Of a stretch of DNA of 64,000 nt, positions 12,583 through 30,944 are shown in pieces. The stretch's first letter is position 1. Every line of letters begins with the position of its first letter. Under the pieces are notes generated by a model. That model saw nothing but the letters and a program-made list of their open reading frames with translations, ran no database searches and was not told the origin of the DNA. Where the stretch lies: positions 462,334 through 526,333 of the forward strand of contig CANMBU010000003.1 in assembly GCA_947496175.1 (NCBI GenBank). Direction: 5' to 3'. Both the position numbers and the translations under genes were made by a program. The DNA comes from an uncultured Roseovarius sp. Lineage in GTDB: Bacteria > Pseudomonadota > Alphaproteobacteria > Rhodobacterales > Rhodobacteraceae.

Positions 12583-12596
12583 TAAAATGGCGGAGA
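12583..12596 (+). repeat. Distal att core (displaced tRNA-Ser 3' end)
   Basis: TAAAATGGCGGAGA identical to 30815-30828; followed by a degenerate GGGA..TTCGAAC T-arm copy. Confidence 0.88.
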
Positions 12597-12694
12597 AGCC
12601 GGGACTCAATTCGAACACTTTATTCGATGAGTTAGAGCGGTGGAACGCAGTCCTTGCTGAGCATAAAAACGAATTGCGGGGGCCGAGACCATGA
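12587..12694 (+). CDS. 35-codon frame giving the predicted recombinase C-terminus in the excised (attP) form
   Basis: MAEKPGLNSNTLFDELERWNAVLAEHKNELRGPRP*; same frame through the att core as the recombinase; stop overlaps the mobC ATG (ATGA). Confidence 0.6.
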   Translation: MAEKPGLNSNTLFDELERWNAVLAEHKNELRGPRP

Positions 12695-13080
12695 CACGGC
12701 ACCCTGCAAATTCACCTGAGCCGACCAAGCGTCTTGCGCCTTTTTCTCTTCGTCTGACGGTCGAAGAACGCGAACAGCTTGAACGCCAATCCGGTGGCCT
12801 TTCGCTCGGGGCTTACATCAAATCCGTCATTTTTTCAGATGACGCCCCCAAGTATCGCAAACGCCGCAAAGGTTCGACCGCAGAGCAACAACTGCTCGCC
12901 GAGATACTGGCGCGGCTTGGTCAAACGCGCACAGCCAATAACCTCAATCAGATCGCCAAGCACCTCAATCAAGGAACGCTGGTTGTGGATGAAGAATTAG
13001 AGGCTGATCTCAACCGCGCCGTGGCGGAAGTCGCCTGGATGCGCGCGCAATTGATGAACGCACTCGGGAGAAAGTCATGA
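12691..13080 (+). CDS. mobC: Relaxosome accessory protein (MobC-like, ribbon-helix-helix)
   Basis: FSLRLTVEERE RHH start; NNLNQIAKHLN MobC motif; coupled to relaxase. Confidence 0.85.
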   Translation: MTRHPANSPEPTKRLAPFSLRLTVEEREQLERQSGGLSLGAYIKSVIFSDDAPKYRKRRKGSTAEQQLLAEILARLGQTRTANNLNQIAKHLNQGTLVVDEELEADLNRAVAEVAWMRAQLMNALGRKS

Positions 13081-14351
13081 TCCTGATTGCCTCCCAACGT
13101 TCTGGTGCCCGTGATTTGGCTGATCATTTGATGAACGACATTGAGAATGATCATGTTGAACTGGCAGACCTCACAGGTTTTATGTCTGATGATCTACATG
13201 GGGCATTGGATGAAGCCTATGCCATTTCCAAGGCAACCAAGTGCCAGAAATTCCTTTTTTCAGTGTCCCTAAATCCACCCGGTGATGCTGTGATCTCCAA
13301 GGAAGAGTTTCAGGAGACGGCGGATCGCGTTGCAGAGCATTTAGGCATTCAAGATCAGCCGCGCGCACTGGTCATTCACGAGAAACAGGGCCGCCGTCAT
13401 GCGCACGTAGTGTTCTCAAGAATTGATGGTGAAAACTTAAAAGCCATTGAGCTTGGCCTCTTTAAAGCCAAGCTGCGTGATCTTTCCCGTGATCTGTTTT
13501 TGGAACATGGCTGGAGACTGCCAGAGGGATTGAGCGTCTACGGGAATAAAAACCCGCTCAACTTCACACTCGCCGAATGGCAACAGGCGCAACGCATTGG
13601 CGTTGATCCAAGAGAGATCAAACAGGCATTTCAGGATGCCTGGGAGCAATCAGATGATTTGAAGTCCTTGTCCAATGCTCTTGAGGACAAAGGGTTATTT
13701 TTGGCCAAGGGAGATCGCCGTGGATTTGTCGCTCTTGATATTGAGGGGAATATCTATGCGCTGGCGAAATGGACGGGGCTTAAAACCAAGGAGGTGAAAG
13801 AGCGGTTGGGGTCGCCTGACGCGTTGTCGTCGGTGTCTGACACACTGGTCGCGTTGAAACGCAAGAAGACCACGCAGGTTCGCGACTACATCCTGCAGGT
13901 CAAGGATCGCCACGCCAGAGAAATGCGCCCCTTCTTTGAGGAACGTGCCAGTCTCGTCACAACCCAAAGGAAAGAGCGCAGCACTCTCAAAGCAAAACAG
14001 GACGCGCGATGGATTGCAGAAACTAAAGAGAGATCAGACCGCCTCAATTCTGGTTTGCGAGGTCTCTTTGATCGTTTGACGGGCGCGCATGGCAAGATCA
14101 TCAAACAGAATGAGCGTGAAGCCTGGGCTGGTCTCAATCGCGATCAGGAACAGCGTGATACTTTGATCCTGGCGCAAATGACTGAACGCAAGGAGTTGCA
14201 GGAGCGCGCCTTAAAAACTCGCCACAAACATCGTCTTGAACGCAAACAAATGGCCCATGTTGTGCGCCACTACATGAACAACCCTGAGCACGATAACAGC
14301 CCGCGCCGTACGCGGCATCGGTCACAGGAACCACCGGGCTTTAGTCGCTAA
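13077..14351 (+). CDS. Relaxase/mobilisation nuclease (MOBP-like) with C-terminal coiled coil
   Basis: SVSLNPP motif II; VIHEKQGRRHAHVVFSR HUH motif III. Confidence 0.88.
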   Translation: MILIASQRSGARDLADHLMNDIENDHVELADLTGFMSDDLHGALDEAYAISKATKCQKFLFSVSLNPPGDAVISKEEFQETADRVAEHLGIQDQPRALVIHEKQGRRHAHVVFSRIDGENLKAIELGLFKAKLRDLSRDLFLEHGWRLPEGLSVYGNKNPLNFTLAEWQQAQRIGVDPREIKQAFQDAWEQSDDLKSLSNALEDKGLFLAKGDRRGFVALDIEGNIYALAKWTGLKTKEVKERLGSPDALSSVSDTLVALKRKKTTQVRDYILQVKDRHAREMRPFFEERASLVTTQRKERSTLKAKQDARWIAETKERSDRLNSGLRGLFDRLTGAHGKIIKQNEREAWAGLNRDQEQRDTLILAQMTERKELQERALKTRHKHRLERKQMAHVVRHYMNNPEHDNSPRRTRHRSQEPPGFSR

Positions 14352-14401
14352 TCCGCGACACACCCTCAATCCACATCATTCATATCCAATAGGAGATTGC
14401 C

Positions 14402-16219
14402 ATGTCCTGGCACATCAAAACTGCGGTCCTTGCGACCGCACTGGTAACCCTTTGTCTGTTCACATCTGATCCCGCCTTTGCAGACTTCGTCTGGCGTAAT
14501 GGTCGTTGGGTGGACAATTACACTTACAGACCCGCTCGCGATCCATTGATCTGGCTCTCATTTATGAGACTTATTCTGGTCGCAGGGTCTGCCGCCCTCG
14601 GCTTTGCGATTGGGTGGTTCTTCTCGCCCCAGGGTCATCCAGCCCGTCAAATCATACTCATTCTTCTTGGTGTTGTCGCAATGGGTGTGGTTCTCATTGA
14701 TCAAAGCGCCTTGGGATGGAGCACCGCAACCCTGATGGCTATTGTTGGTTTTTTCTGGGGTATTGGCTTCTGGCTTGGCAAGGGGCTGAAACAGGTCTTT
14801 GATACTCCAACAACCTTTGGTTCTGCCAAATGGGCAGATGCGGAGCATTTGACCCAGAAAGGTCTCTTCACCAAAACCAAAGGTCTTTTGTTGGGACTGG
14901 CCTTTGATGGCAATCTGATGTCCCGTATTTACTACTCGGGTGATCGTCACGCCCTGACCGTTGCGCCCAATCGCTCGGGCAAGGGATTTGCCCATATAAT
15001 TCCAAACCTTCTTAAATATCTTGGCTCGGTTCTGGTGATCGATCCTAAGGGTGAGAATGCCATTATCACTGCCAAGAGACGAGAAGAGATGGGCCAAAAG
15101 GTTCATCTGATTGACCCCTGGGATATTGCGGCAACGAAGTCTGGCTTTGAACCCGCCAGGATTAATCCTCTTGACTGGATTACGATGGATGATCCTGACG
15201 CGCCAGAGAACGCCAAGCTTCTAACAGACGCCCTGGTGCAATCCAAACCCAAGAGTGATCCGTTCTGGCTGGAAGAGGCCAAAGCTCTTTTGCAGGGCTT
15301 GATCCTGCTCGTTGCCTTGGACGAAACCTACGAGGGACGGCGCAATCTGGGAACTGTCCGTGATCTTATGCTGTTGGATGGGAAAGAGATGAAGGCGCTG
15401 TTTCAGTATATGGCCAACTCCGCTCATCCTTTGATCGTCTCCACAGGATCGCGTTCCTTGCAAAAGGAAGAAAAGCTGATGGCCAATGTTTTGGCCTCGG
15501 TTCAGGCGGAAACCCATATGCTGGACAGTCATCGTGTTCGTGATGCGCTGTCGGCGTCTGACTTCAGCTTTGAAGACCTCAAGAAAGACCCAATGTCGGT
15601 GTTTCTGATCCTGCCAGCAGATCGCCTGAACTCCTTCAATGCATTTCTGCGTTTGATGGTCCAACAGGCGATTACTGTGAATGCCCGCAACATCACGGAC
15701 AAACCAGAAAAGCCTGTGCTTTTCATTCTTGATGAAATGCCAGCCTTGGGACGTCTGTCGATGCTGGAACAGGCCTATGGGCTGATGGCGGGTTTTGGTA
15801 TGCAGTTCTGGGGCATCGTCCAGGACTTGAGCCAGCTTCGCCGTGTTTATGGGGAAGATTATGAGAGCTTCATCGCCAATTGCGGGATGGTGTCCTACTT
15901 TGGCTCCCCTGACAAACGAACGGCGGAATATTTCTCTTCCCTTTGCGGGGTCACTACTGTGCCCAATTTGAGCACGGCGGTTGCATCGGCGGTCAGTCAT
16001 AATTTTGGTTCCGGCGGTGGCGGCAGTGAATCCACCACCAGTACGGACACACGCTCGGCAACACAGCGCAAACTGGCCTATCCCGATGAATTGATGCGGA
16101 TGCATCAAGACCAGCAACTCATCTTCATTGAGAACACTGACCCGATCCTCTCAGAGAAGATCAAGTGGTTTGAAGACCCGGAGCTCTCCAAGCTCGGTGT
16201 AGATACCCACAAGTCTTAG
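14402..16219 (+). CDS. VirD4/TraG-type type IV coupling protein
   Basis: N-terminal TM segments; TFGSAKWA; Walker A APNRSGKG; VIDPKGEN; Walker B FILDEMPALG; QDLSQL. Confidence 0.9.
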   Translation: MSWHIKTAVLATALVTLCLFTSDPAFADFVWRNGRWVDNYTYRPARDPLIWLSFMRLILVAGSAALGFAIGWFFSPQGHPARQIILILLGVVAMGVVLIDQSALGWSTATLMAIVGFFWGIGFWLGKGLKQVFDTPTTFGSAKWADAEHLTQKGLFTKTKGLLLGLAFDGNLMSRIYYSGDRHALTVAPNRSGKGFAHIIPNLLKYLGSVLVIDPKGENAIITAKRREEMGQKVHLIDPWDIAATKSGFEPARINPLDWITMDDPDAPENAKLLTDALVQSKPKSDPFWLEEAKALLQGLILLVALDETYEGRRNLGTVRDLMLLDGKEMKALFQYMANSAHPLIVSTGSRSLQKEEKLMANVLASVQAETHMLDSHRVRDALSASDFSFEDLKKDPMSVFLILPADRLNSFNAFLRLMVQQAITVNARNITDKPEKPVLFILDEMPALGRLSMLEQAYGLMAGFGMQFWGIVQDLSQLRRVYGEDYESFIANCGMVSYFGSPDKRTAEYFSSLCGVTTVPNLSTAVASAVSHNFGSGGGGSESTTSTDTRSATQRKLAYPDELMRMHQDQQLIFIENTDPILSEKIKWFEDPELSKLGVDTHKS

Positions 16220-16292: not shown

Positions 16293-17201
16293 ATGGCCGA
16301 TCCCAAAGACCCGTTTAATCGTATCACCAATCCTGACGGCACGCCCGTGCGCGACAAGGACAACGCGCATCCTGTTTTAAAACCCGTCAATCAAAACCTG
16401 CGTCCAGCCCAAAACCTGGCCCCAGGCGGATCAATGGGCATTCGGCAACGTAAGTCCAGTGACCTTGTCCCGCAGCGCCCATCAGTTGAGATTATCAACA
16501 GAATTGATACTGATACGCATCGCTATATTGATGGTCGCATCACAACCATGCCTGACATGCGTGTCATGGCGATGATCAATGACAAGCCCTCGCCAGTTGG
16601 GATTGAAGAGGGGCATGTTGATCAGCTCGTCCTCATGCAAATGGACAAGACCGTCGCGCGCTATAATCGTGGTTGGGAAATTGACCCGCAAACGCCTCAG
16701 CACAAACAGGCGATACAATTTTTTAGAGAAGAGTTTGATCCCTCCTACGAAAAGCAAAGATCAAATGATCTGGTCCCAAAACAGCAACCAGAAAAGGAAC
16801 GTATCAAGTTCACAAAATCACCAGAACGTTCTGAAGAAAGCACCCGTTCAGGTGCGGCTCCTGCGTTTCAGAATGTGTCCAGTGAGCTTTCTTGTGAACC
16901 CGTTCGCAATACAAATTGGGTCAAAGGCAAAATCTTGTCCATGCCAGGCTACACCTTCCATGCCAAAGTGTTTGATTTGCCCTCTTCATACGGGATTGAC
17001 GATGGGCGGATTTCCAAACTGCAAGTTCTGAAACACGGCCAGGAAGTGGTCAACTATGAACGAGGCTGGGATCAAAAACCCGATACGCCCGAACAGGTTG
17101 AAGCTGTACATCGCATTAGACGTGGTCTTGGTGACATGCCTGAGAAAGAGTTTCAGGCGTACCAGCACATGCCCGACAAAGGGCATGGGTTTGAGCGGTA
17201 G
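16293..17201 (+). CDS. Hypothetical protein with a duplicated ~65-aa domain
   Basis: GGAGG RBS; two homologous units ending ..GIEEGHVDQL..YNRGW and ..GIDDGRISKL..YERGW. Confidence 0.8.
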   Translation: MADPKDPFNRITNPDGTPVRDKDNAHPVLKPVNQNLRPAQNLAPGGSMGIRQRKSSDLVPQRPSVEIINRIDTDTHRYIDGRITTMPDMRVMAMINDKPSPVGIEEGHVDQLVLMQMDKTVARYNRGWEIDPQTPQHKQAIQFFREEFDPSYEKQRSNDLVPKQQPEKERIKFTKSPERSEESTRSGAAPAFQNVSSELSCEPVRNTNWVKGKILSMPGYTFHAKVFDLPSSYGIDDGRISKLQVLKHGQEVVNYERGWDQKPDTPEQVEAVHRIRRGLGDMPEKEFQAYQHMPDKGHGFER

Positions 17202-17326: not shown

Positions 17327-17575
17327 TCAGATACTTCTTCTCGAGAAAGGTTGCATTTTGACGTTTCGGGAAACTACAAAATCATTTCCAACCTTTTCCT
17401 TTAACTCAGCGAGACGGCCCTCAGCGACTTCAACATCTGCACAGCGACCTCTGTCAAAAACTTTCACAAGCTTAACAAAGTCCACGTCAGCCAATACTTT
17501 ACCATAGTCTAATTGCCCGCCAGAGTGGTTCATCGACATACGTTTCGCCGCTCGCATACTCAATGTACAAATCAT
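17327..17575 (-). CDS. Small protein directly downstream of the S8 peptidase (possible I9/prodomain-like partner)
   Basis: 82-aa ORF, same strand, 30 bp after the S8 stop; alternating beta/alpha pattern. Confidence 0.55.
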   Translation of the reverse strand: MICTLSMRAAKRMSMNHSGGQLDYGKVLADVDFVKLVKVFDRGRCADVEVAEGRLAELKEKVGNDFVVSRNVKMQPFSRRSI

Positions 17576-17605
17576 AGCTCGAACCTACCACATTGATTAG
17601 AAAGG

Positions 17606-18820
17606 TTAAATAGGAACATTTTCCTTTATTTGTGGCAATTTAATGATGCCAAACCCTTGTTTGTCGTGGTGGATACCTGTGTCGTCACATAAATCTTTCA
17701 ATGTTTCTTTAACATAGTCAACTCTCTGTTGCAAAGAATTGTCTTGTTTTTCAAAGTCTTTCTTGCACAACACTTGTGATAAAATTGCTGTCACAATTGG
17801 AGCAGCAAAAGAAGTACCATCCATCTCAAAAATCGATCCATCTGAATAAGCAATGTCAACACCGATACCGGGAGCTACAGCGTCCAAGCCTGGCCCAAAG
17901 CAGGTTCCATGGTGAAAGAAAACAGATTGGCCGTCAGACGTTCGCCCTATATTTCCAACATCTTCCAGGGATTCCACCTGACTGATATTGTAGTCTGTTC
18001 CAACTGGTGCTGCGTCCACCAACCCTATGCTTCCCACTCCTACCACCGTAGGCAACTCCGCTGGCATTGCCAATTGGCGGACATTTTCGTTTCCAGCAGC
18101 AACCACAACGGCACAACCATTCAACAAAGCAAACTCAATTTCTTCTTCAAAACGCTCCTTCGCTTCAACGTGCTCTAATTTGGTATCGTCAAAATGAAAG
18201 CCGCTTGAAATGTTGATCACGTCAACACCATAGTCTTGAACTAGGGCCGAGATACCTGAACACGCTGTCTTGGTATCTAAATACTCACCGGAAGCATCTG
18301 CAGCATCCCACAGGAATATCTCATAGTCAGAAACGCCATCTAGAACGCTCGAAACGACCGTGGCAACATGAAGCCCGTGAAAATTGACGGGTGAATTTTC
18401 ACTGGGCAAATTCTCGTCTAATCCAACTACGTGCAAAGGATTTGCATCAGGTGAGCGAGGCACGCCGATGTCTATCACTCCGATCCTAGTCCTTTTATCC
18501 TTACCAAAAGCAACACCCCCGCAAGTCAAGTTTCTCCACCAACTGGATTCCCCGTTCGCTTTAATTTCCGGACAATAAATTTTTTGTTCCCTTTTCGAGT
18601 ATTCCAGACTCTTTGTAACACGCCAGTGCCCATCACATGGGATAACACGAACTTTGTCCGGGTAAATTCCCTCCAAAACTGGAACTTCAACGCACCCGTC
18701 CTCCATCGTTGGAAATAGTCGATCGTGCACGCGAGCCCCATAGTGAAACTCTAATAACGCACCAATCGGTTGATCTACGGGACCAAGAACTTGTACCTTC
18801 TTACCACTCATGTTTTGCAT
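17606..18820 (-). CDS. S8 (subtilase) serine peptidase, no signal peptide
   Basis: Catalytic motifs IGVIDIG, HGLHVA, AAGN, GTSFAAP. Confidence 0.88.
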   Translation of the reverse strand: MQNMSGKKVQVLGPVDQPIGALLEFHYGARVHDRLFPTMEDGCVEVPVLEGIYPDKVRVIPCDGHWRVTKSLEYSKREQKIYCPEIKANGESSWWRNLTCGGVAFGKDKRTRIGVIDIGVPRSPDANPLHVVGLDENLPSENSPVNFHGLHVATVVSSVLDGVSDYEIFLWDAADASGEYLDTKTACSGISALVQDYGVDVINISSGFHFDDTKLEHVEAKERFEEEIEFALLNGCAVVVAAGNENVRQLAMPAELPTVVGVGSIGLVDAAPVGTDYNISQVESLEDVGNIGRTSDGQSVFFHHGTCFGPGLDAVAPGIGVDIAYSDGSIFEMDGTSFAAPIVTAILSQVLCKKDFEKQDNSLQQRVDYVKETLKDLCDDTGIHHDKQGFGIIKLPQIKENVPI

Positions 18821-18837
18821 AACCTTTGGGAATCATT

Positions 18838-19197
18838 ATGGACTTTGAAAATTTAACAGAAGATCAACTTCGCGCTCTAGAAGAATTAGGGGAAGAATTG
18901 GAAAAAGTTTCCTGGCAGCCTGAAACTATTCCGATGAAGCCGTATGGATTGGGGAAAAAGATCAGTAATGCGAAACTGCTCGCGATAAACTACGTCAATG
19001 AAAACCGTGAGGAAATGCAAAAGCATGTTTGCAAAGACAATGCGGTAAAGATTGAGATACAAGCTGCCGGCGCCAGTACAGCAACAGTCGCTGACGCCTT
19101 TCAGGCCATGGCAGGTGCACCAATACCAGTTTGGAATCTAGCAAATGTCGTATGTATGTTAGGTCTCGGTAAATTTTGCCAATGGAAGGCAAAGTAA
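18838..19197 (+). CDS. Hypothetical protein divergent from the S8 peptidase
   Basis: 119-aa ORF; acidic N-terminus; small-residue/hydrophobic C-terminus (..VVCMLGLGKFC). Confidence 0.7.
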   Translation: MDFENLTEDQLRALEELGEELEKVSWQPETIPMKPYGLGKKISNAKLLAINYVNENREEMQKHVCKDNAVKIEIQAAGASTATVADAFQAMAGAPIPVWNLANVVCMLGLGKFCQWKAK

Positions 19198-19237: not shown

Positions 19238-19858
19238 CTAAACCACCGCCACCTTGTTTACCGCCCGTATGATCGTTTGCGGTGACAACTCTAACTCTTC
19301 TGCCAACTCATCGACAGACGCCATCCCCGAATGCAGTCTTTCCTTTAGGATCGGCACCACCTCCGGCGGAATAGCCCTGGGCCTGCCAATATGCACACCC
19401 CTGGCACGGGCGGCTTCCATCCCTGCCTTGGTGCGTTCGCGGATTTGCTCGCGCTCAAACTCTGCAAACACGGCCAATTGACCATATAGCAATCGTCCAA
19501 TGGATGTGGTGGTGTCGATCCTTTGGGTGAGGGCTATGAAGTCCACGCCATTCTCGCGCAGATCTTCGAGAAGTTGTAGGAGGTGCAGCACAGATCGGCT
19601 GAGACGATCCAGTTTCCACACTACCAGCGTGTCGCCGGAACCAAGCTCTCCTAGGAGTGTTTCGAGCGAGCATCGATCTTTGATAGCGCCTGAGACGCCC
19701 AAGTCACCATAGATGGTATCGCACCCTGCCTCTTTGAGCGCATCCACCTGTAGAGCCTCAGATTGGTCAGCGTCCGACACGCGGACATAACCGATTTTGC
19801 GCCCTTTTGGTCTAAGCTCTTGTTTGGACTCTGTGTTTCTCTGTTGAGGTTTGTTCAT
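19238..19858 (-). CDS. Small serine recombinase (Hin/Pin-type invertase/resolvase)
   Basis: IGYVRVS..Q catalytic Ser, LVVWKLDRLSRS, IDTTT..GRL, ERT.AGM.AAR..G..GRP, C-terminal HTH. Confidence 0.93.
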   Translation of the reverse strand: MNKPQQRNTESKQELRPKGRKIGYVRVSDADQSEALQVDALKEAGCDTIYGDLGVSGAIKDRCSLETLLGELGSGDTLVVWKLDRLSRSVLHLLQLLEDLRENGVDFIALTQRIDTTTSIGRLLYGQLAVFAEFEREQIRERTKAGMEAARARGVHIGRPRAIPPEVVPILKERLHSGMASVDELAEELELSPQTIIRAVNKVAVV

Positions 19859-19915
19859 TGGCTCAGTGTGCCACTTGAGTGGCTTCGTACAAGCGGAATT
19901 CATGGCATTTTCTCC

Positions 19916-20060
19916 TTGTCAAAAGGGGTCCCTTTGCGAAGCCGCTGAATCCGAGGTTTTGCGCGATCTCATTGATCCGAGATTTCTGTGGATAAACGGG
20001 GATTTGGTGCGTTTGCCCCGCCGCGTGGTAAGAGTTATCTAAAGGGACCCCTTTTGATGG
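19916..20060. repeat. Two inverted 26-bp hix-like recombination sites enclosing ~120 bp
   Basis: TTGTCAAAAGGG-GT-CCCTTTGCGAAG (19916-19941) and TTATCTAAAGGG-AC-CCCTTTTGATGG (20035-20060); perfect 17-bp inverted repeat 19919-19935/20041-20057. Confidence 0.75.
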
Positions 20061-20093: not shown

Positions 20094-20981
20094 TTGCCAA
20101 AGGGAGACCTCATGTCGTTCAAGTTACTATGCCAAACCGAACGTTTGTCGGTTCTTACTCTTGTTACTTGTCTTTTAATTCCTGCCACCGCCAATAGAAC
20201 CGAAGCACTTAGTGACCTGAGTGAACTCTGGCCTGCTCCCCTTTCGGTCGAAAGTAGCTTTGAGGGACTCGGCATTGATATCAAAGGCATCGCGATGACC
20301 ATGTCGATGAAAGAGGCGCAATCAGTTCATGGCGGTGATTTCTCGAATGCAATATGGCGGTTTCGCAATCAAAACCGCCTCTCCAAGGAGAAGGTAACCA
20401 GACAGGATGTCGGCAACCTGAAAGTCAAATTCGATCAACCTGGTGCCTACGATGACCTCCGCACATTAGGATCGCACTGGCACACAGGTAATCGCATGAT
20501 CCGTATGACAAGGGATGTCGAATTCTATGACGTCGACCGACAACCTTCGGCACAGAACTTCGTGGCATCTGTGATCGAAAAATATGGTACGCCTTCTAAC
20601 GGTCCATATCGTACCACGGGTAAATATCGCTATACGGTCAAACCGCATGAGGCGCGTCGATGGATGTTTGACAATGCGCAGCTCTCAACGACCTGCGAAG
20701 TCTACGATCTTCCCGTTGATCTCAAGGACGCAACACGGCTCAAGGAGGACAACCTGGAAGCCATCATTGCTGATCTTGAAACGCCTGAGGCTTGTGATGG
20801 ATACATGGAAATTTTGCATGAAATCACACCAGCATCCACTGTCAGCAAATATCGTATTCAAATCACCGATGTTCGATTGCTGATGATTGATGCACTCAAT
20901 GAACGGCGCGTCCAGGCAAATATGGAAGCCTACTTTGAAAGGGCTTTACAATCTGGCAACAAAAACACTCCGGACTTATGA
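20094..20981 (+). CDS. Secreted hypothetical protein
   Basis: 295-aa ORF with signal-like N-terminus (SVLTLVTCLLIPATA); likely start nearer 20112. Confidence 0.75.
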   Translation: MPKGDLMSFKLLCQTERLSVLTLVTCLLIPATANRTEALSDLSELWPAPLSVESSFEGLGIDIKGIAMTMSMKEAQSVHGGDFSNAIWRFRNQNRLSKEKVTRQDVGNLKVKFDQPGAYDDLRTLGSHWHTGNRMIRMTRDVEFYDVDRQPSAQNFVASVIEKYGTPSNGPYRTTGKYRYTVKPHEARRWMFDNAQLSTTCEVYDLPVDLKDATRLKEDNLEAIIADLETPEACDGYMEILHEITPASTVSKYRIQITDVRLLMIDALNERRVQANMEAYFERALQSGNKNTPDL

Positions 20982-21304
20982 AGAGCGTCTCGGAAGAAAA
21001 AAGTAAGTGGGGCGTGACGACCCCTCCGTCTCTTTAATTTCCCACTAACAGGGTTGCTCCTGCAACCCTCTGCCCTTCGGCGAGAAATGGGGGTGCAAGG
21101 GTCAAGATCAATCGATGGCGGGCGCAGGTATCTTCGATGCCTAGCCTCGGGAGACCGGCTATTGATCTTGATCCCGCGCCGGGGGCGGTAGCCCTAAGAA
21201 TCAACTCAAGCATGCAGAAGTCATTTGATTTCCCGCAAAGAAGCAATAGGCTAGCCTTTAGTGCAACGCCTGCGCGCTATTGGCTTTTTATTTGGGGGAA
21301 TTGA

Positions 21305-22222: not shown

Positions 22223-22261
22223 ATTCCAAAGTAGCGCGGCTCATGTATGGGACATTTCTCA

Positions 22262-22960
22262 ATGAAGTTTTTAGTACTGTCTTTTTTTGTTTTCTTGGCG
22301 ATACCGTCTTCTGCAAAGGCTCAAGGTCTAAGAGATTTTATCAAAGAAACTATCAACGAAGCCGCTGGACCTCCTGGAAGGAGTTTTGGGGACAAGTCAC
22401 ATTTGATGGTTGTGAAAGCGGATGGGGGCGTCACATTTATCTTTCTTTGCAGCGCGGGCAAAGAGAATGGTGCGGGCGACAAATTGGTGAATGCAATTTT
22501 TGATGGACTGAACCAAGCGACCGCTGGTGTTTCTGTCTTTTTCAGATCTTGGATACGGAGAGAGATCGAAAAGGGTGTGGTAAACGAGGGCGATGCGTTC
22601 TGTGGTGTCTTTGCCAAAAAAACTGGTGGTAAGAGCAAAGCCAGGAATGTACGAGACGGCAGCATCTATACAACCTCGTGGCGAAATGGCGAGAAGGTTC
22701 AATCGGTAACTGATGAAAGGGCCTGTAAAAAAGTGCACAAGAGATACTTTTGTTTCGAAGTCGCCGAAGGGCCTTCGGATGACGGTGAAATCGACGGTGT
22801 AAGTGGATGCTTTGAAGCTAAAGTCGATGGGCGGCTGGTTTCCTTTTCGTTTGGCCGAGGAGAGACTATTCCGGTCGAAACACGAAGTACTTTCGGCCCT
22901 AAAGACTCAAAATCTTCAGAGGGTTGCGTGGTTCGAAAATTGGGCGTTGAAAAGAATTAG
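22262..22960 (+). CDS. Secreted Cys-containing hypothetical protein
   Basis: Signal peptide MKFLVLSFFVFLAIPSSAKA; six Cys; follows the GH75-like gene. Confidence 0.7.
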   Translation: MKFLVLSFFVFLAIPSSAKAQGLRDFIKETINEAAGPPGRSFGDKSHLMVVKADGGVTFIFLCSAGKENGAGDKLVNAIFDGLNQATAGVSVFFRSWIRREIEKGVVNEGDAFCGVFAKKTGGKSKARNVRDGSIYTTSWRNGEKVQSVTDERACKKVHKRYFCFEVAEGPSDDGEIDGVSGCFEAKVDGRLVSFSFGRGETIPVETRSTFGPKDSKSSEGCVVRKLGVEKN

Positions 22961-23297
22961 TTGAGAACAAAAAGCAATATTGCAGAAAGCGCTGCCAAGG
23001 CCGAATTTTGAGATTTGATGAATACTAAGGGTGCTCGAGAAGTCGCGATAACCTCTTGGTCGGGTCCAGCAATGAAATGCAGGCGGCATCCAACCCGCGC
23101 AGGGATGGTCTCCATGAAATGGTCAGGATTGCATAAGGGAAGGAACGCCCTTTGCTCGATGGGTGTGGGGAGAGAGAAATCTCCCACGAGGGATCAAACA
23201 CCGATATGTTTGTGTGGTCAAATCAGGCTCAACGCCTGTTCCTGACCACTTGCTTTGGGGGATAGAACGGGGGAGCGCAGCAACCCCCTTCTCAAGT

Positions 23298-23324
23298 GGG
23301 GCGGTACTACCGCCCCCATCTTGC
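23298..23324 (+). other. Candidate origin of transfer (MOBP-type nic site)
   Basis: 9-bp inverted repeat GGGGCGGTA-c-TACCGCCCC immediately followed by CATCTTG|C, like RP4 TATCCTG|C and R64 CATCCTG|T. Confidence 0.55.
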
Positions 23325-23481
23325 GATGGACGCTATCAACATCATGCTACTCCTTTAGCATCTCAATTGCGGGTCAACCCATGTCAATTTCACCAACACC
23401 GTATCGTGGATAAGCTACAATCTTAGATTGACTCGCAGCATTGCTTCTCATCAGTCTGGTTAGAAGGAAAAGGCAACGATT

Positions 23482-24789
23482 ATGAGATTAGAAGAAATTA
23501 GCATTGGCGCTTTGTCGGTAAATCGCGCGAATGATCGTCACGGTGAATTGGAAAACGAAACGGCAGCAATTGCCTGGCTTTTCAATACACGCGAAACTCA
23601 CATGAAAAACCTCGCCAAAGACATCGTTGCGGAGGGGCGAATTTTTGAGCCACCACTCGTCTCGCCCGAAGGATCAAGTTATTTGGTCTTCGATGGAAAC
23701 CGTCGTGTCACCTGTTTAAAGCTACTGGAAAAACCTTCCCGTGCGCCAACAACGACTCTGCAAGAATACTTTGCGAACTTAAAAGCTGATTGGCAGGGAG
23801 ACTTTCCAAAGAAAATCCTATGCCAGGTTGAAGACGACAGAGACCTCATCGACGATATTCTTTACAGAAGGCACACTGGAACGCTGAATGGTGTTGGCCA
23901 GACAACCTGGGACGACCGAATGAAAGACAACTTTGTCGCTCGTTCGGGTAAGAAAACAGGCTTCAACATCGCTGATGAAATCGAACAACGATTGGAAGCA
24001 GCAAACCTGTTACCATCTACCAAAATCCCACGGTCGAACCTGAACCGCCTTCTGTCGTCAGAAGCAATTAGAAACAGGTTCGGATTTACGGCAAAAAACA
24101 AAGTCTTCGACTACACGCATAATCCTGATGTTGTATTAAAAACGCTTGCTGCTCTCGCTGATGATTTTGCAGCTGGACGGGTAGTTCTTGGCGACATTTG
24201 GGACAATGAAAACAAGTTGAAATATGTAGACGGATTAGAAGACCAAGGGTTACTTCCTACGGACGAAGACATCATCGATAACGAGAGCGGCACGGGCAAA
24301 CCAAGCCCAAAACCGAAGCCCAAACCAAAACCGAAGCCCAAACCAAAACCCACGAAACGAACGACTTTGATCCCGCAAAAAGAATTCGGAATTTTATGGA
24401 CGGGCAAACAACACCGCATGCAGGCGATCTGGGAAGAACTACAGTTTCACCTAAACCCCGAAAAGCATCCGAACGCGGTTTCCGTTCTGTTTCGAGTGCT
24501 CTTGGAGTTAGCCGCTGACCATTACGCAAGTGAACATGGCGTGGCGTTACAACAAAACGACAAACTGGCACGAAGGGTCGAAAAGGTCGGTGATGCGTTG
24601 TTTAGCCAAGGCAAAATCGACAAGAAGCAGAGAACAGCAACAAAGAAGTTTGGTCAGCTAGACCAACTGGTATCAGCAGATACGCTTAACCGATATGTCC
24701 ATTCACCCAACTTCGCGCCTTCGGCCAAACACCTAGAAGCGCTTTGGGATACCATGGCCGATCTGATCGTCGCCTGCCTCAAAGGTTAG
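23482..24789 (+). CDS. ParB/Srx-like N-terminal domain, PK linker and HEPN-like C-terminal domain
   Basis: EPPLV..VFDGNRRVTCL; (PK)n linker; LFRVLLEL...LNRYVH helical C-terminus. Confidence 0.65.
   Translation: MRLEEISIGALSVNRANDRHGELENETAAIAWLFNTRETHMKNLAKDIVAEGRIFEPPLVSPEGSSYLVFDGNRRVTCLKLLEKPSRAPTTTLQEYFANLKADWQGDFPKKILCQVEDDRDLIDDILYRRHTGTLNGVGQTTWDDRMKDNFVARSGKKTGFNIADEIEQRLEAANLLPSTKIPRSNLNRLLSSEAIRNRFGFTAKNKVFDYTHNPDVVLKTLAALADDFAAGRVVLGDIWDNENKLKYVDGLEDQGLLPTDEDIIDNESGTGKPSPKPKPKPKPKPKPKPTKRTTLIPQKEFGILWTGKQHRMQAIWEELQFHLNPEKHPNAVSVLFRVLLELAADHYASEHGVALQQNDKLARRVEKVGDALFSQGKIDKKQRTATKKFGQLDQLVSADTLNRYVHSPNFAPSAKHLEALWDTMADLIVACLKG
24308..24351 (+). repeat. 18-bp tandem repeat encoding the PKPKPK linker
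   Basis: CAAAACCGAAGCCCAAAC x2 plus a partial unit. Confidence 0.8.
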
Positions 24790-24814: not shown

Positions 24815-25108
24815 TCAAAACAGGCTACCCTGACGCGAAGCCTCAACATAGGCCTTCCATTGCTTTGATTGCGCTTCTTTGTTGAGCCAATCGGTCACAA
24901 GGGTGATCACTTCGTCGATTTCAAGAACGGGATCCATCGGTCCAAAGTAATGCGATCTGTAACCTGTGTCTGAGATGGGAATAGGTTGGTCATCCTCAGC
25001 ACAAATTGCGACGTGATCTATAACGCCATACTGCCTTGGTGTGTAAGAGAGCCGAATGGATCGGCCCTCCCATGTGATGTTGATGTCAATCGTTTCGCCG
25101 TTACGCAT
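24815..25108 (-). CDS. Small hypothetical protein ending in a clamp-binding-like QGSLF motif
   Basis: AGGAG RBS; start overlaps the upstream gene's stop; C-terminus ..RQGSLF. Confidence 0.7.
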   Translation of the reverse strand: MRNGETIDINITWEGRSIRLSYTPRQYGVIDHVAICAEDDQPIPISDTGYRSHYFGPMDPVLEIDEVITLVTDWLNKEAQSKQWKAYVEASRQGSLF

Positions 25109-25337
25109 CGCTCTGCTCCTCAGTCTCAACAGTGATTGGAAAGAGGTAGATGTCATCTGTGATGATCTGCGTGCCTGAGGTTCGGATACAAATGCCTCCG
25201 TCCTTGGCACGGTTCCAGGCGACACCGATGCGTTCCAGCCGTGCCTTGCGGCCATAGCCTTTGGGTGTTTTGACGATCCAGTCGGGATCATTGTTTGCCT
25301 CGGGTGAGTGTTGTGAAGTTTGACGAGTTTCTGTCAT
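25101..25337 (-). CDS. Small hypothetical mobile-element protein
   Basis: GAAAGGAA RBS; ERIGVAWNR..GGI.IR beta-rich core. Confidence 0.7.
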   Translation of the reverse strand: MTETRQTSQHSPEANNDPDWIVKTPKGYGRKARLERIGVAWNRAKDGGICIRTSGTQIITDDIYLFPITVETEEQSDA

Positions 25338-25667: not shown

Positions 25668-26123
25668 TTAAGTAGTCGACCACAAGCTGCGTGTGTTTTG
25701 GCCTTCACCTATAACTATCCGCCAAGCTGTAAACGCTGCGCGAAATCTGCCAGCGGATTCAAGGTTGTCATGAAGGGAAACAAGAGCTGACTCACTGGAG
25801 TAACTCTTCGTCTGTGTTGCAAGCGCAAGTCTGTTCTCAAGTCTAACGACAGAAAGAAGCGGCGCACCGAAGCCGTTGGTTTCGATCAGGCTCGTTTCGT
25901 CAACCTCAACTCGGACATCTGGGACAATTAGACCGTCCCAATTCTCGTTGTCTTTGCTTTCGAAGCAGTGCGATTGAAACTCACCAGAAAGGAATACTGC
26001 CGTGTTGACGTTTTCAATATGGCCCACAAGGATTATCTTTCCATAAGTGTCGGTGGGCAAAATCAGACTTAGGGGTTTTGCCTTCCCGACTGGGCCAACG
26101 GTGAATTCATTAGGTGACAACAA
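25668..26123 (-). CDS. Hypothetical beta-rich protein
   Basis: 151-aa ORF, third gene of the TIR cluster. Confidence 0.7.
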   Translation of the reverse strand: MLSPNEFTVGPVGKAKPLSLILPTDTYGKIILVGHIENVNTAVFLSGEFQSHCFESKDNENWDGLIVPDVRVEVDETSLIETNGFGAPLLSVVRLENRLALATQTKSYSSESALVSLHDNLESAGRFRAAFTAWRIVIGEGQNTRSLWSTT

Positions 26124-26210
26124 CTCGAATTCTCCTAACCAATTAGAAAAGATGATCGTACTTAAATGATCCCAATAAACCTACGAGTCCTAGCTCAAAG
26201 CTTGACCATT

Positions 26211-26375
26211 TCACTCCCAGCCTCGCCGAACATCGGTGCGGTGGCACGCGGGGCAATGTACGGCGCTGGTTGGTCGATTTTCTTGACGGGCTTCACGACG
26301 CTCATCCTCATTGAGTACTTCCGTTTCGAAGCGATGTCCGCAATTGTTGCAACGAAATCGAACTTGTTCAGGCAT
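26211..26375 (-). CDS. 54-aa zinc-ribbon protein
   Basis: CNNC..CPAC; ATG overlaps the TIR gene stop by 8 nt. Confidence 0.75.
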   Translation of the reverse strand: MPEQVRFRCNNCGHRFETEVLNEDERREARQENRPTSAVHCPACHRTDVRRGWE

Positions 26376-27312
26376 GGCTAATACCTGCCTGTTCAATAAA
26401 CTCGTTCCACAAATACTCTGCTGCTTGCTCAGGATTTAGACGCTCAGGACCATTTCCAAACACTGACATTGTCACGACCAGGAATAGTTCATACTCGTCA
26501 GAGGATACGTTGAAACCACCGTTTGCCGTATTGTCTGCGGCATTTTCGTTAAAGGAAAAGTAGATGTCTCCCAAGGCAAAACCCGCATTTCGGCAATGCA
26601 CAGTGATATGCGCCGTTCCATGTTGACGCCCTTGATTGATGACAGTACTACCAAAAGAGTTCGCGCCTCTATCTACAAATCGGCCACGCAGGCCATCTAC
26701 CGCATCTATTTCCTCAATCGCACGTTTGAAATAATCCCTAATCGTGTTGAAAGACGCATCGCGATATTCGCTAAGGTCGATTTCATCAAAATCGCGTTGA
26801 ACGCGATAGCGTGGGACCGCCTTTTGTTGAGGCGTTGCCACCGCTTCATAAGCGGCAATTTCTGGTTTCTTAAACTCACCCGCAGTGACTATGCGTCGAA
26901 TTTCCTGAACCACGTCCAGGTAAGCCGTATTATCGTTCGTCCATTCTGAGATTGGGAGACCGTCTTTTGGCACAGCTTTCAAACGCCTCAGTTGAGGCAT
27001 GGCGGCCCAATCGCATGGCTCTACGATGATCGGCACAACACGCGCCTCCTGAGCAGCATGCCGCTCCAATGCTCTTTGCATTTCCTGATCCACACAATAG
27101 TTAGATGCAATGAAATCAGGGCTAACCATCAGCAAAAAAATGTCTGCCGTCTCTAGCTCTCTATTGATCTCATCGTCCAAGACATCGCCGGCCAAAATCT
27201 CACGATCGTACCACGTGTCGATCTGGCCTTCCCGTTGAAGGTTGGCGAGGTGAACATGGAGGCGAACAAGCGCATCGGTGTCTCGATGTGAGTAGGATAT
27301 AAATGCCTTCAT
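26368..27312 (-). CDS. TIR-domain protein with uncharacterised C-terminal domain
   Basis: AFISYSHRD, WYDREILAGD, LMVSPDFIASNYCVDQEM (catalytic Glu kept), VVPIIVEPCDW. Confidence 0.9.
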   Translation of the reverse strand: MKAFISYSHRDTDALVRLHVHLANLQREGQIDTWYDREILAGDVLDDEINRELETADIFLLMVSPDFIASNYCVDQEMQRALERHAAQEARVVPIIVEPCDWAAMPQLRRLKAVPKDGLPISEWTNDNTAYLDVVQEIRRIVTAGEFKKPEIAAYEAVATPQQKAVPRYRVQRDFDEIDLSEYRDASFNTIRDYFKRAIEEIDAVDGLRGRFVDRGANSFGSTVINQGRQHGTAHITVHCRNAGFALGDIYFSFNENAADNTANGGFNVSSDEYELFLVVTMSVFGNGPERLNPEQAAEYLWNEFIEQAGISHA

Positions 27313-27466: not shown

Positions 27467-28450
27467 ATGACCGAAAATGATAAGTCACCTCACCCCAGCT
27501 ATGACAATACTCTAAAAGAAGAGACCTTGAACTTTCTTAAGCTTTGGGCTGGTGAACCAGGAAATCTGCTGAAAGAAACACTGCCAGGCGAAAGTAAAGA
27601 CGCAACCTTCTCTCTAGATAGGCAATACCTTTTTTCTGAGACGATTTTCCTAGCAGACCGAAACGCCGAAGAGCACCAAGCTAGGGAGCGGAAGCACATA
27701 TGCGAAGACATCGCGGTACAGTCTTTTCCCTTAGAACGTATCTTTGCCCCAACAGAAATCGACGAACTTGAGCAATCATTTTACGAAATTTCATCGCTTC
27801 AAACTATGCACCACAACCAGACAATTTCCGTGGATCATAAGCTCAAAGCGGATTTCAATGATGAGGGTGGAACTGCTAGGCTGAATTTGATAAAGTTCTT
27901 TCTTATCAAGCGTATGTGCTGTATACTTGATGGTAAGAATTTAACCATTGAAACCCGTAACAAGTCATTAGTGAACCACAAGGAAATACGACTCAAACAC
28001 CTGGAACTAGAAATTTCGAACCTACTTCGAGAAGCGTTCGCAATTTGTGTTGATGACCAGGTTGAGAAACGTGATTTCCAAGAGCGAATTATGAAACGCG
28101 CTCTTCAAGCTGATGACGCCACGTCCTTTCCAACAGAAGCGCCCGAACTTTACGTAGATCGCAAAGACGAAACAGAGCCACCGGCTAAATTCCTGATGAG
28201 GGTCTACAAAAAATGGGCCAAAACAGGCTTAACTAGGAGAAGTATTGGCAATCTTGATCCTACTTTAATCCGCGCATTGTATCGAGAAGACATCCCTGTC
28301 GAGATCGATCAGATGTTCCCAAAATCACCGGGTGGACGACCAAAGAAAAGCCGTTCTCTAGAAGAGGAAGCCGCTGCACGTAAAAAAAGGCGTGAGGCTA
28401 ACCGTGAACAAGTCAGAAAACATCGCGAACGAAAACGAAATCCACAGTAA
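27467..28450 (+). CDS. Hypothetical protein with basic C-terminal tail (possible DNA-binding)
   Basis: 327-aa ORF; GGRPKK AT-hook-like motif and RKKRREANREQVRKHRERKR. Confidence 0.7.
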   Translation: MTENDKSPHPSYDNTLKEETLNFLKLWAGEPGNLLKETLPGESKDATFSLDRQYLFSETIFLADRNAEEHQARERKHICEDIAVQSFPLERIFAPTEIDELEQSFYEISSLQTMHHNQTISVDHKLKADFNDEGGTARLNLIKFFLIKRMCCILDGKNLTIETRNKSLVNHKEIRLKHLELEISNLLREAFAICVDDQVEKRDFQERIMKRALQADDATSFPTEAPELYVDRKDETEPPAKFLMRVYKKWAKTGLTRRSIGNLDPTLIRALYREDIPVEIDQMFPKSPGGRPKKSRSLEEEAAARKKRREANREQVRKHRERKRNPQ

Positions 28451-28483
28451 CAACATTACACATCTACAGTAATCTGCTTTCTG

Positions 28484-28551: not shown

Positions 28552-28686
28552 ATGGCTGTAAGTAATGAACAACTGAAGCAAGCGGAAGCCGTCGGCGCAC
28601 GCGGCGGCAATGTAAACACCTCTACACTCCCTTATGGTGACAAGGTGAAAATCGATGCGGCTGTCCGCAAAGGCAAAGGTATGTGA
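28552..28686 (+). CDS. 44-aa small protein missed by the ORF track
   Basis: GAAAGG RBS; MAVSNEQLKQAEAVGARGGNVNTSTLPYGDKVKIDAAVRKGKGM*; own promoter and terminator. Confidence 0.65.
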   Translation: MAVSNEQLKQAEAVGARGGNVNTSTLPYGDKVKIDAAVRKGKGM

Positions 28687-28713
28687 AGCTTACTTCTCGT
28701 ACATGCCAACATT

Positions 28714-28744
28714 GGGCGGCGGAGAACTAATCTGCCGCCCTTTT
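28714..28744 (+). terminator. Intrinsic terminator
   Basis: GGGCGGCGGA-gaactaa-TCTGCCGCCC followed by TTTT. Confidence 0.7.
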
Positions 28745-28994
28745 CGTTTATCAATCGGAAATTTCAATGATCCATCCAAACGACATCCAAATCCCCAGAT
28801 GCGCTTACGTCGTATCATTTTGTGGTGCTTGGGCGTTGTCATTGTTATTAAGAACTTTCACTAACCCACTAATATTTTTATATAATTTTCTTTACATGAT
28901 AGGAATTTTATCCTATGATGTTCTCTTTATGTTCGAGCGCGTGACGCGAACGACGAATACCCAAAATTGGGAGAAAGGACAGGTTTAATCTGAG

Positions 28995-29312
28995 ATGAAA
29001 GACAGAGAAATGAACAACAACGTGCAAAGACCAAAGCTAGAAATTGATTGGGATGCTTATGGGGAGATGATGGAAGACTCCGATATGTCTGAAGAAGACA
29101 AACGGGTTCTCATCGAAACACTTTGGAACATTGTTGTCGCCTTTGTTGATCTCGGATTTGATCTGCATCCTGAGGAGAATGATTGTGGAGAACCCCGTTC
29201 TCTCAGTCCATTTCCGATCAAAGATATAGTAGAATTGAGTAATCGAAGAAAAAGAAAGAAACGAGATAGTGCGCGCTCCGATGATGCGCAGAAAGGACAA
29301 GGTCATGAGTAA
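28995..29312 (+). CDS. Acidic hypothetical protein coupled to the serine recombinase
   Basis: 105-aa ORF (IETLWNIVVAFVDLGF); overlaps the recombinase ATG. Confidence 0.75.
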   Translation: MKDREMNNNVQRPKLEIDWDAYGEMMEDSDMSEEDKRVLIETLWNIVVAFVDLGFDLHPEENDCGEPRSLSPFPIKDIVELSNRRKRKKRDSARSDDAQKGQGHE

Positions 29313-30944
29313 AGACGTTAACCAAAAAGCAGTTGTCTATTGCCGTGTATCGTCTGCTGCGCAAATGACCAAAGGCGACGGTTTGGCCTCCCAGGAAAGT
29401 CGGTGTAAGGAATATGCCCGCTATCGCGGTTATGACGTCAAAAAGGTCTTTCAGGATAACATGTCTGGGGGTGATCTTGATCGCCCTGCCATGAGCGCGA
29501 TGGTTCAGTTTATTCGCGAACAGGATGATACGGTTGTCGTCATCATTGATGATATTAATCGGTTTGCACGTGATGTGGTGGGGCACTGGCATTTACGCGC
29601 CATGGTCGCTGAGGCCGGGGGCAAATTGGAAAGCCCCACATTGGAGTTCAAGGAAGACAGCGACTCCATTCTGGTGGAGAATCTTCTCGCTTCTGTCTCA
29701 CAGCATCAGCGTCAGAAGAATGGCGAGCAAACCAAGAACAGAATGCGCGGGCGCGCCCTCAACGGCTATTGGACCTTCTCCGCGCCTCCTGGATACAAGT
29801 TCGAGCGCGTGTCTGGTCATGGCAAACTGTTGGTTCGGGATGAACCCTTGGCCTCGGTTATTCAGGAGGCGCTCGAAGGGTTTGCCACGGGACGATTTGA
29901 AACGCAGGCAGAGGTCAAACGCTTCCTTGAAAACGAACCTGCCTTTCCAAAAGATTCACCCAATGGGACAATCCGTTTTGAGAAGATCATTCGGTTGATG
30001 TCGCGTGTCGTTTATTCGGGTCATATTGAATACCCGAATTGGGACGTCTCCCTGCGCAAGGGCCATCATGAACCCATCATCTCCTTGGAGACCTATGAGG
30101 CCATCCAAAGAAAGATCAAAGAGGGATCACGCGCGCCGTTTCGCAAGGATATCAATGCAGACTTCCCTTTGCGTGGATTTATCGCCTGCGACGACTGCGG
30201 CACGCCTCTGACGGCCTGTTGGTCTACCAGCAAGTCAGGCAAGAAACATCCTTACTATCTGTGCCACAACAGGGCTGTGACAGCTATCGCAAGTCCATTC
30301 GACGTGATGTGGTGGAAGAGGAATTCCAGTCCCTCTTGCGTTCTCTACAGCCTTCAGAGGGACTATTCGCCATTGCAAAGCGGATGTTCAAAGACGCGTG
30401 GGGACAACGACAGGCGCAAGCGGATGTAGGCCGGGCCATTCTTCGAAAAGATCGCGATGCAGTAGATCGCAAGATTGAAGGTCTTTTGGACCGCATTGTG
30501 GATACTGATAACACTTCGCTCGTCGCCACTTACGAAAAGCGATTGGAAAAACTGGATCGCGAGAAACTGGTTCTGGATGAAAAACTCGAAAACCATGGCC
30601 CAAAACCGGGCACCTTCGAGGAATTGTTCGAACACCCACTAGATTTTCTCTCAAGCCCCTGGAAACTATGGGAAAGTGGGTCTCTCAACCTGCGCCGTAC
30701 CGTCCTCAAACTGGCTTTTGCAGACCGTATGACCTACTCCCGAAAAGAGGGACTTCGAACACCAAAAACCACTACACCTTTCAAGGCGTTAGAGGGTTTT
30801 TGTGGTGATGGATGTAAAATGGCGGAGAGACAGGGATTCGAACCCTGGGTGGGCTTGCACCCACAACGGTTTTCGAGACCGCCCCGTTCGACCACTCCGG
30901 CACCTCTCCGCGGGGGTCTGGAGCGTGCGTGTAATCGGCTTTGA
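29305..30944 (+). pseudogene. Large serine recombinase (integrase), frameshifted at ~30271
   Basis: AVVYCRVSS..Q catalytic Ser; IDDINRFAR; recombinase domain; Zn ribbon CDDC..YLC; second half continues in another frame (GCDSYRKSIRR..coiled coil) and reads through the att core. Confidence 0.88.
30820..30909 (-). tRNA. tRNA-Ser(CGA)
   Basis: GGAGAGG/TCTCTCC acceptor stem, CT-CGA-AA anticodon loop, long variable arm, GGTTCGAATCC, encoded CCA. Confidence 0.95.

Follow-up and report, generated by a model that had tools for sequence, protein, structure and literature searches.

Integrative mobilizable elements (IMEs) are thought to outnumber conjugative elements, and few families have been described outside Firmicutes and Enterobacteria. 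The 3' ends of tRNA genes are usually targeted by tyrosine integrases. Serine recombinases reportedly integrate the ssrA-specific islands of Dehalococcoides at the 3' end of the tmRNA gene, with formation of a short direct repeat. Serine integrases are also present in IMEs, for example in the Tn4451/Tn4453 group, which encodes TnpX and the Mob protein TnpZ, and in streptococcal IMEs (PMC5704250). IMEs of Mesorhizobium possess a VirD4-type coupling protein of their own, and five of them carry serine recombinases (PMC8627217). The window analyzed here, a stretch of 64,000 nucleotides from an uncultured Roseovarius sp. (contig CANMBU010000003.1), harbors an island of 18,232 bp at a tRNA-Ser(CGA) gene. 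With high confidence, this island is best explained as an IME that belongs to a family of such elements and that has been stranded by a frameshift in its large serine recombinase (LSR) gene.

In common with the serine-integrase IMEs, the island is chromosomal, possesses its own integrase, relaxase and putative origin of transfer (oriT), lacks a mating pore and would need a helper type IV secretion system. It differs from them by targeting the 3' end of a tRNA gene, with an LSR reading frame that crosses the att core into the tRNA. Further differences are a conserved Gin-like 118-bp switch and the position of the oriT-like site, about 9 kb from the relaxase gene and between cargo slots. The Dehalococcoides islands, set apart here by description and not by sequence, belong to another phylum and use another recombinase lineage. 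As described, they carry no relaxase, coupling protein, oriT module or invertible switch. The IME-like plasmid pPDL2, which targets a seryl-tRNA gene, was rejected as a family member on account of its 328-aa phage-type integrase.

The integration target, the tRNA-Ser(CGA) gene, is located at 30820-30909 on the minus strand (ARAGORN, Rfam). It is intact and the sole gene with a CGA anticodon in the genome. Rfam gave no other match in the island. An exact 14-mer, TAAAATGGCGGAGA, is present at 12583-12596 (attL core) and at 30815-30828 (attR core). A third copy is missing on both strands of the 3.85-Mb genome, the chance expectation for a given 14-mer being about 0.03. The last 9 nt of the repeat are the 3' end of the tRNA-Ser, encoded CCA included. 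Because the insertion falls at the repeat overlapping these 9 nt, the single-copy tRNA is kept intact. The GC content is 0.487 in the island and 0.571 and 0.572 in the flanks within the window. The left flank comprises genes for Ppx/GppA and the rRNA methyltransferase RlmE/FtsJ. In the right flank, the tRNA-Ser is accompanied by a B12-binding radical SAM gene and DUF2059 genes. In the inner left end (12597-12690, plus strand), the P' arm of the putative attP, a tRNA-like stretch of degenerate sequence is found, as well as TTCGAACACTTTATTCGATGA, which the Thalassobius element L101 has conserved. Over 85 nt, the inner left end is 76% identical to that of L101.

Two empty sites define these boundaries. 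In a genome of the same genus (G011), rlmE and tRNA-Ser are separated by about 365 nt; left-flank sequence ending in CGCGCTCAAGTNGCCGNAGGNGGTAGCGCACT abuts the tRNA 3' end, and the site is collinear and empty. A 546-nt contig from metagenome run X1 has nine mismatches to the left flank over 397 positions (about 98% identity). It reads TAAAATGGCGGAGA followed directly by GACAGGGATTCGAACCC, and the latter, past position 12596, corresponds exactly to window positions 30829-30845. The junction represents an unoccupied attB site in a near-conspecific strain. Other genomes of the genus that were examined contain no island gene between the same flanks, including two with inserts of 18 kb (G003) and 10 kb (G006) at this place. 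A preliminary description, made from the sequence of the window, had regarded the 14-bp repeats as the synteny breakpoint, and both empty sites agree with this. It had also named two observations that would speak against the island, relatives with the same genes but without an empty site, and a repeat lying off the breakpoint. Both were checked, and neither was found.

A short sequence just outside attL, CTCAAGTNGCCGNAGGCGGTAG(C/A) at 12545-12582, was also observed elsewhere, in L019 (G016:C28), L020 (G015:C40) and L112 (about 9100-9200). In genomes of the same genus it follows further tRNA genes and is present in a 16S-23S spacer; in the Rhodobiaceae element it lies beside attL. The sequence may represent a small stem-loop repeat or, alternatively, a conserved tail behind tRNA genes.

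Adjacent to the inner left end, three mobilization genes are located on the plus strand, all recognized by Pfam. The first, mobC (12691-13080), encodes a MobC/NikA-like relaxosome accessory protein, with 70-73% identity in the related loci L101, L102 and L112. A relaxase with a MobA/VirD2-like nuclease domain (3.8e-15) is encoded at 13077-14351. Relaxase homologs were detected in all 15 LSR-bearing genomes tested and are rare on plasmids; the Protein Data Bank (PDB) holds no sequence relative. The third gene (14402-16219) encodes a type IV coupling protein of the VirD4/TraG family (1.6e-87) with N-terminal membrane segments. No VirB4 or other mating-pore gene was found in the island when all larger open reading frames (ORFs) were scanned with Pfam. 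Contigs C5 (125 kb; about 55-81 kb) and C2 (about 1.082-1.088 Mb) of the same genome each contain a VirB4-type locus that includes a coupling-protein gene of its own; these two loci represent candidate helper transfer systems. Classification as IME follows from mobilization genes inside the island, the lack of a mating pore there and VirB4 systems elsewhere in the genome. The compact mobilizable element of about 18 kb and its mobilization trio, both proposed in the preliminary description, are thereby upheld, together with the repeats and the empty sites. Contig C2 also bears a distant serine recombinase at about 427 kb.

Integration into tRNA genes and serine integrases occur in prophages, too. 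Identification of the island as a prophage, a phage satellite or a fragment of a self-transmissible integrative and conjugative element is nevertheless extremely improbable, given the full set of relaxase, MobC and coupling protein and the missing mating-pore genes. Moreover, a PHROGs scan of ten cargo and small backbone genes revealed no capsid, terminase, tail or replication match. The sole annotated match was a weak one to a ParB-like partition protein (E 1.7e-4) for the gene at 23482-24789.

The IME backbone extends beyond the mobilization genes. Behind the coupling-protein gene, a protein with two DUF7678 repeats is encoded (16293-17201, plus strand; profile match), at the same place as in L112, a locus of a Rhodobiaceae metagenome-assembled genome (MAG). 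The following S8 protease module (17327-19197) consists of an 82-aa ORF (17327-17575, minus), an S8 peptidase (17606-18820, minus) and a 123-aa ORF (18826-19197, plus). The S8 protease has only three detectable homologs, one of them in L112. The gene order there is mobC, relaxase, coupling protein, DUF7678, 82-aa ORF, S8 protease, 123-aa ORF and invertase, continued by paired sites, a KlcB-like gene, an ArdA-like gene and the oriT block. Since it is syntenic with the Mob genes in L112, the S8/DUF7678 block travels with the backbone. The S8 gene, previously listed as a conflict module, is thus present, but should not be counted as free defence cargo. The complete backbone comprises mobC, relaxase, coupling protein, DUF7678/S8, a Gin-like invertase with a 118-bp segment, an oriT-like block, a small gene and the LSR. 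The stretches between these pieces vary among family members.

The oriT-like block (23150-23335, plus strand) contains four hairpins, as indicated by conservation and covariation. At the nucleotide level, its sequence is 68-82% identical in 22 LSR loci, distant ones with tRNA-Arg as target among them. An alignment of 15 copies revealed compensatory changes in 20 of 43 predicted pairs; in the terminal hairpin, double-sided changes affect five of seven pairs, and none is broken. This last hairpin, GGGGCGGTA/CTACCGCCCC at 23296-23314, is followed by conserved CATCTTGCG (consensus A-N-CTTGC, only the second base varying). In oriT regions of the MOBP/MOBQ type, an inverted repeat precedes by a few bases a conserved nick core of the type ATC(C/T)TGC, cut before the final C. 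The consensus A-N-CTTGC is taken here to resemble the core ATCCTGC. Rfam holds no match for the block. The candidate oriT placed earlier at about 23270-23330 is situated inside it. If a nick at about 23323 is right, the gene at 23482-24789 would be the first to enter the recipient.

The LSR gene (29305-30944, plus strand) contains a one-base frameshift, so that its reading switches from frame +1 (followed to about 30276) to frame +3 (from about 30270 onward). The ORF at 29269-30429 comprises resolvase (PF00239), recombinase (PF07508) and zinc ribbon (PF13408) domains and an RVSS motif, and ends at an early stop. The neighboring frame goes on with GCDSYRKSIRRD, runs through the att core and antisense over the tRNA, and stops at 30944. 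Intact homologs are encoded in a single frame, e.g. 514 aa in Thalassobius sp. Cn5-15 (L021) and 548 aa in a Cohaesibacter MAG (L067); such an uninterrupted frame is not found in the island copy. A tblastn search with the intact protein located the frame change at 30270-30276, detected no other defect and gave 61% identity downstream. Among 100 further species of the genus that were surveyed, 20 possess an LSR homolog, a patchy distribution. All but three of the 26 matches are open frames of 512-583 aa, in comparison to 396 aa in the island. The serine integrase of the preliminary description is therefore real in its domains, while the one-base frameshift had been overlooked. The integrase is probably dead in this copy, and present-day mobility is doubtful because of the frameshift. 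The element is most likely stranded at present. Stranding would be recent, since the downstream frame is still open and retains its identity to intact homologs.

The frameshift may alternatively be an artefact, produced when a short run of G's was sequenced or assembled wrongly, in which case the element would be fully active and capable of excision and mobilization. The frame change occurs at AACAGGGCTG, a short homopolymer context, the 189 downstream codons contain neither stop nor gap, and every other backbone gene is intact. The assembly, however, is of high quality (99.96% complete in 13 contigs), a homopolymer error would be unusual in a run of only three G's, and nearly all homologs within the genus retain the long open frame that is cut at 396 aa here. 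Full activity is thus considered unlikely. Even less probable is an old domesticated island with relic mobility genes, kept for its cargo. The frameshifted integrase would fit such an island, as would the eroded LSR 3' remnants beside other family members, which show decay in place. The att repeats are exact, though, and relaxase, MobC, coupling protein, invertase and oriT-like block are intact. The relative of about 98% identity without the island implies a recent insertion at the species level. A recently stranded IME remains the preferred reading.

The LSR start is overlapped by a 105-aa gene (28995-29312, plus strand), which keeps its place immediately in front of the LSR in 44 loci. Its product is a candidate directionality factor or regulator. 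A second LSR suspected upstream of a tRNA-Arg(ACG) at 50966 was rejected; no LSR match was obtained, and the ORF resembles a metallocarboxypeptidase by eye.

Relatives of the LSR, 252 in total, were found mostly in Rhodobacteraceae and in other Alphaproteobacteria. The LSR 3' end overlaps an antisense tRNA in 57 of 66 loci that contain a complete LSR with downstream sequence. These tRNAs are specific for Ser (all four anticodons), Arg, Leu, Glu or Thr. As the LSR frame runs into the antisense tRNA, the att core lies inside the LSR coding sequence throughout the family. In a modelled circle of the island (window positions 30267-30944 and 12597-12693), the LSR frame continues for 32 codons, and its TGA overlaps the ATG of mobC. 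The frame ends differently in the circle and in the integrated state, so integration would alter the C-terminal tail of the LSR. The nearest LSR homologs, 76-78% identical, belong to other genera, and the best homolog within the genus reaches 62%. This identity pattern points to a transfer between genera. Two of the related genomes, G041 and G042, have relaxase and LSR at opposite ends of one island, as in the window; the island measures about 16 kb in G041 and about 28 kb in G042 (L102).

Island proteins were compared with related loci by tblastn. The LSR is common to 82 loci and the 105-aa gene to 44; mobC, relaxase and invertase are shared with the closest elements. No further island gene was detected in this comparison, save for an 87-aa ORF (23163-23426), which is situated over the oriT-like block and matches three loci. 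Apart from this conserved block, the cargo between switch and recombinase module does not recur in 80 related LSR loci. The cargo combination, presumed earlier to be undescribed, is unique among the 80 loci examined, but a KlcB-like relative of the gene at 24815-25291 recurs in a further element, L112. A description of an LSR/tRNA IME family was not found in the searchable literature, in a search that was not exhaustive. The family is widespread in marine Alphaproteobacteria and apparently undescribed.

Decayed LSR 3' ends were observed in three places: just outside attL in the related elements L101 (17867-18021) and L112 (9142-9360), and next to a tRNA-Leu in L023 (6022-6200). They suggest a repeated or tandem use of these sites and provide attP-like junctions of an LSR end and mobC.

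An invertible switch belongs to the conserved backbone. A small serine recombinase of 221 aa (19238-19903, minus strand; Pfam 2e-42) is closest to the Gin DNA invertase, with a match of 1.5e-34 against 1e-24 to 1e-22 for gamma-delta/Tn3 resolvases, a difference of ten orders of magnitude. Upstream of its gene, the switch (19917-20060) is formed by two hix-like sites of 26 bp in 12-2-12 layout, with crossover points 118 bp apart. The site at 19917-19942 reads TTGTCAAAAGGG-GT-CCCTTTGCGAAG and the site at 20035-20060 reads TTATCTAAAGGG-AC-CCCTTTTGATGG; the cores GT and AC are reverse-complementary. Paired sites are present beside an invertase homolog in L101, L102, L112, L072 and L059, spaced by 117, 119, 116, 127 and 98 bp, respectively. 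In L102, the interior and both inner half-sites are reverse-complemented relative to L101, L112 and the window, while the outer half-sites, including the distinctive distal GCCTTTTG, are unchanged. As seen in the assembled loci, this flip is the signature of a site-specific inversion. Both orientations are known from the comparison between related elements. The invertase switch of the preliminary description is thereby substantiated by a Gin-like recombinase, paired sites and a flipped segment. An interpretation of the two sites as a resolvase res site was rejected, since the recombinase is nearer to Gin and L102 shows a flipped interior.

Hin, Gin, Cin and Pin systems share with the island switch a small recombinase, closest to Gin in the island, two 26-bp 12-2-12 sites with half-sites of the TTxTCAAAA type, reverse-complementary cores and, among relatives, both orientations. 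Their classical invertible segments have a size of about 1-4 kb. The island segment differs in comprising only 118 bp without a gene and in belonging permanently to the backbone of a mobilizable element. In each element, an AT-rich -10-like hexamer lies directly next to the distal inner half-site. The segment probably carries an outward promoter that would phase-vary three genes for secreted proteins or, when flipped, the invertase/S8 side.

Two side observations concern the switch. In L102 (9424-11290; the G042 element), a gene of about 1.2 kb has been inserted into the invertase gene and splits it; the product of the inserted gene starts with MQVTTVGLDLAKNIFQVHG and is presumably IS110-like. 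This transposase gene would lock the flipped state. The sequence (C)TGTGGATAA, the reverse complement of DnaA-box-like TTATCCACA, is located in the middle of the segment (window 19975-19990) as well as in L101 and L102, and is degenerate in L112.

Mobilization of an intact copy may proceed as follows. The LSR, perhaps aided by the 105-aa gene product, would recombine attL with attR into a circle, in which the LSR 3' end is joined to mobC. Relaxase and MobC would nick the oriT-like hairpin with its ATCTTGC site before the final C. The coupling protein of the VirD4 type encoded by the island would then dock the relaxosome on a helper type IV secretion system. The 23.3-kb side would enter the recipient first, and the LSR would integrate the circle at the recipient tRNA-Ser.

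Several points weigh against this account of a stranded family member. LSR and relaxase are not located on one contig in every genome tested. Excision, a circular form and an inversion of the switch within the strain are predictions, and the frameshift is read from the assembled sequence. The oriT call combines conservation, hairpin covariation and a likeness to nick cores; similar covariation would also be expected of a structured RNA or of a promoter active on single strands. A scan with the sigma-70 consensus gave no promoter in the switch.

The cargo of the island begins behind the switch with three genes for proteins with signal peptides (20112-22960, plus strand: 20112-20981, 21305-22222 and 22247-22960). 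The product of 21305-22222 resembles the viral GH75 chitosanase V-Csn (7tvm, 1e-9); its two neighbors show no recognizable family. A 435-aa protein is encoded downstream of the oriT-like block (23482-24789, plus strand) and consists of a ParB/Srx-fold N-terminus, a linker of PK repeats and a helical C-terminus. It matched 26 PD-Lambda-5_A profiles of PADLOC over their full length (best 5e-81). More than 1300 homologs exist, as solitary genes for proteins of about 434 aa. No sequence relative is contained in the PDB. In an AlphaFold model (pLDDT 76.5), the N-terminus adopts a ParB/Noc/sulfiredoxin fold (Foldseek 6e-4, probability 1.0). The helical C-terminus yielded weak HepT matches (Foldseek E about 1, probability about 0.3). 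An Rx4-6H motif is absent; NRYVH is present, with two residues between R and H. Of the ParB/HEPN-like assignment made earlier, the ParB-type N-terminus holds and the HEPN part is unsupported. PD-Lambda-5 has been described as a compact system of restriction-modification and abortive infection with a methyltransferase (Vassallo et al., 2022, PMC9519451). The island protein resembles its A component over the full length, without a second gene or methyltransferase; no match to gene B or a methyltransferase was obtained in the island.

Like HerB/YfjB of the F plasmid, this gene may instead serve establishment or anti-defence as a leading-region factor whose expression in the recipient comes first. 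Downstream of the predicted nick it leads the gene order, and a gene with an ArdA domain occupies the equivalent position in L101 and L102. A 158-aa gene (24815-25291, minus strand), 39% identical to a gene with a KlcB_3rd domain in L112, adjoins. The ParB/Noc fold is in agreement, and the ParB-like HerB of the F plasmid provides a precedent (PMC13370423). The strong full-length match to the PADLOC PD-Lambda-5_A profiles argues against a leading-region function, as do homologs that stand alone between chromosomal genes, far from any oriT. An establishment role is accordingly rated as a minority view, doubtful but deserving consideration.

The remaining cargo includes a TIR-Y4lF protein of 314 aa (26368-27312, minus strand) with a TIR_2 domain, in agreement with the TIR gene recognized before, and a Y4lF C-terminal domain. 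The protein matches the Thoeris component ThsB1 in PADLOC (PDLC00420) over the full profile (3e-66). No PADLOC match to ThsA was obtained in neighboring ORFs and no SIR2_2 domain in the genome, so that the island differs from Thoeris in lacking ThsA or SIR2 nearby as well as in the genome. In Ruegeria, Ferrimonas and Aminobacter, homologs of the TIR-Y4lF gene also stand alone and lie in mobile contexts. The TIR gene is followed downstream by a 151-aa gene (25668-26123) and a 61-aa zinc-ribbon gene (26214-26396), both on the minus strand (25668-26396). One system composed of TIR, zinc ribbon and 151-aa protein was rejected, since the cluster is not conserved around TIR homologs. An all-helical protein of 327 aa (27467-28450, plus strand), predicted in a confident model, has about 20 homologs, no Pfam family and no fold match in the PDB. 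Single-gene anti-phage or establishment functions are plausible for the TIR-Y4lF and PD-Lambda-5_A-like genes. The term defence-rich, used in the preliminary description, was overstated; two genes only match defence profiles in PADLOC, both without partner genes.

Related elements carry other defence genes in the slot between oriT and LSR, namely Upx (1349 bits) and a CBASS cyclase with an E1-E2 pair. Since relatives hold Upx and CBASS, the family ferries defence systems, of which the island is a modestly endowed member. The full-length Upx gene is located at L101 5210-8995 (Thalassobius sp. Cn5-15) and the CBASS genes at L103 3110-6096 (Rhodobacteraceae MAG). A weakly Lit-like 300-aa gene was observed beside each of them.

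These features may be drawn together as an unrecognized and widespread IME family of Alphaproteobacteria that is built on a fixed chassis, a reading that is tentative and judged slightly below an even chance. The first of four features would be an LSR specific for tRNA 3' ends, with a coding sequence that spans attP and a C-terminal tail that is swapped. A conserved Gin-type mini-switch of about 118 bp would phase-vary adjacent cargo. The oriT would be placed between two cargo slots, and these slots would exchange Upx, CBASS, TIR-Y4lF and PD-Lambda-5_A-like genes between marine genera.

The locus represents a cleanly delimited IME in a Rhodobacteraceae-type genome of marine origin. Candidate tools for genome engineering are serine integrases that target tRNA genes and have known attB and attP sites. 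The 118-bp serine-invertase switch would rank among the smallest and would offer a compact phase-variation module on a mobile element. An oriT between cargo slots separates the question of host-serving cargo (defence) from that of element-serving cargo (establishment from the leading region). The frameshifted integrase indicates that a perfect-looking island may already be stranded. The family as a whole, with more than 250 recombinase homologs, would move defence systems between genera.

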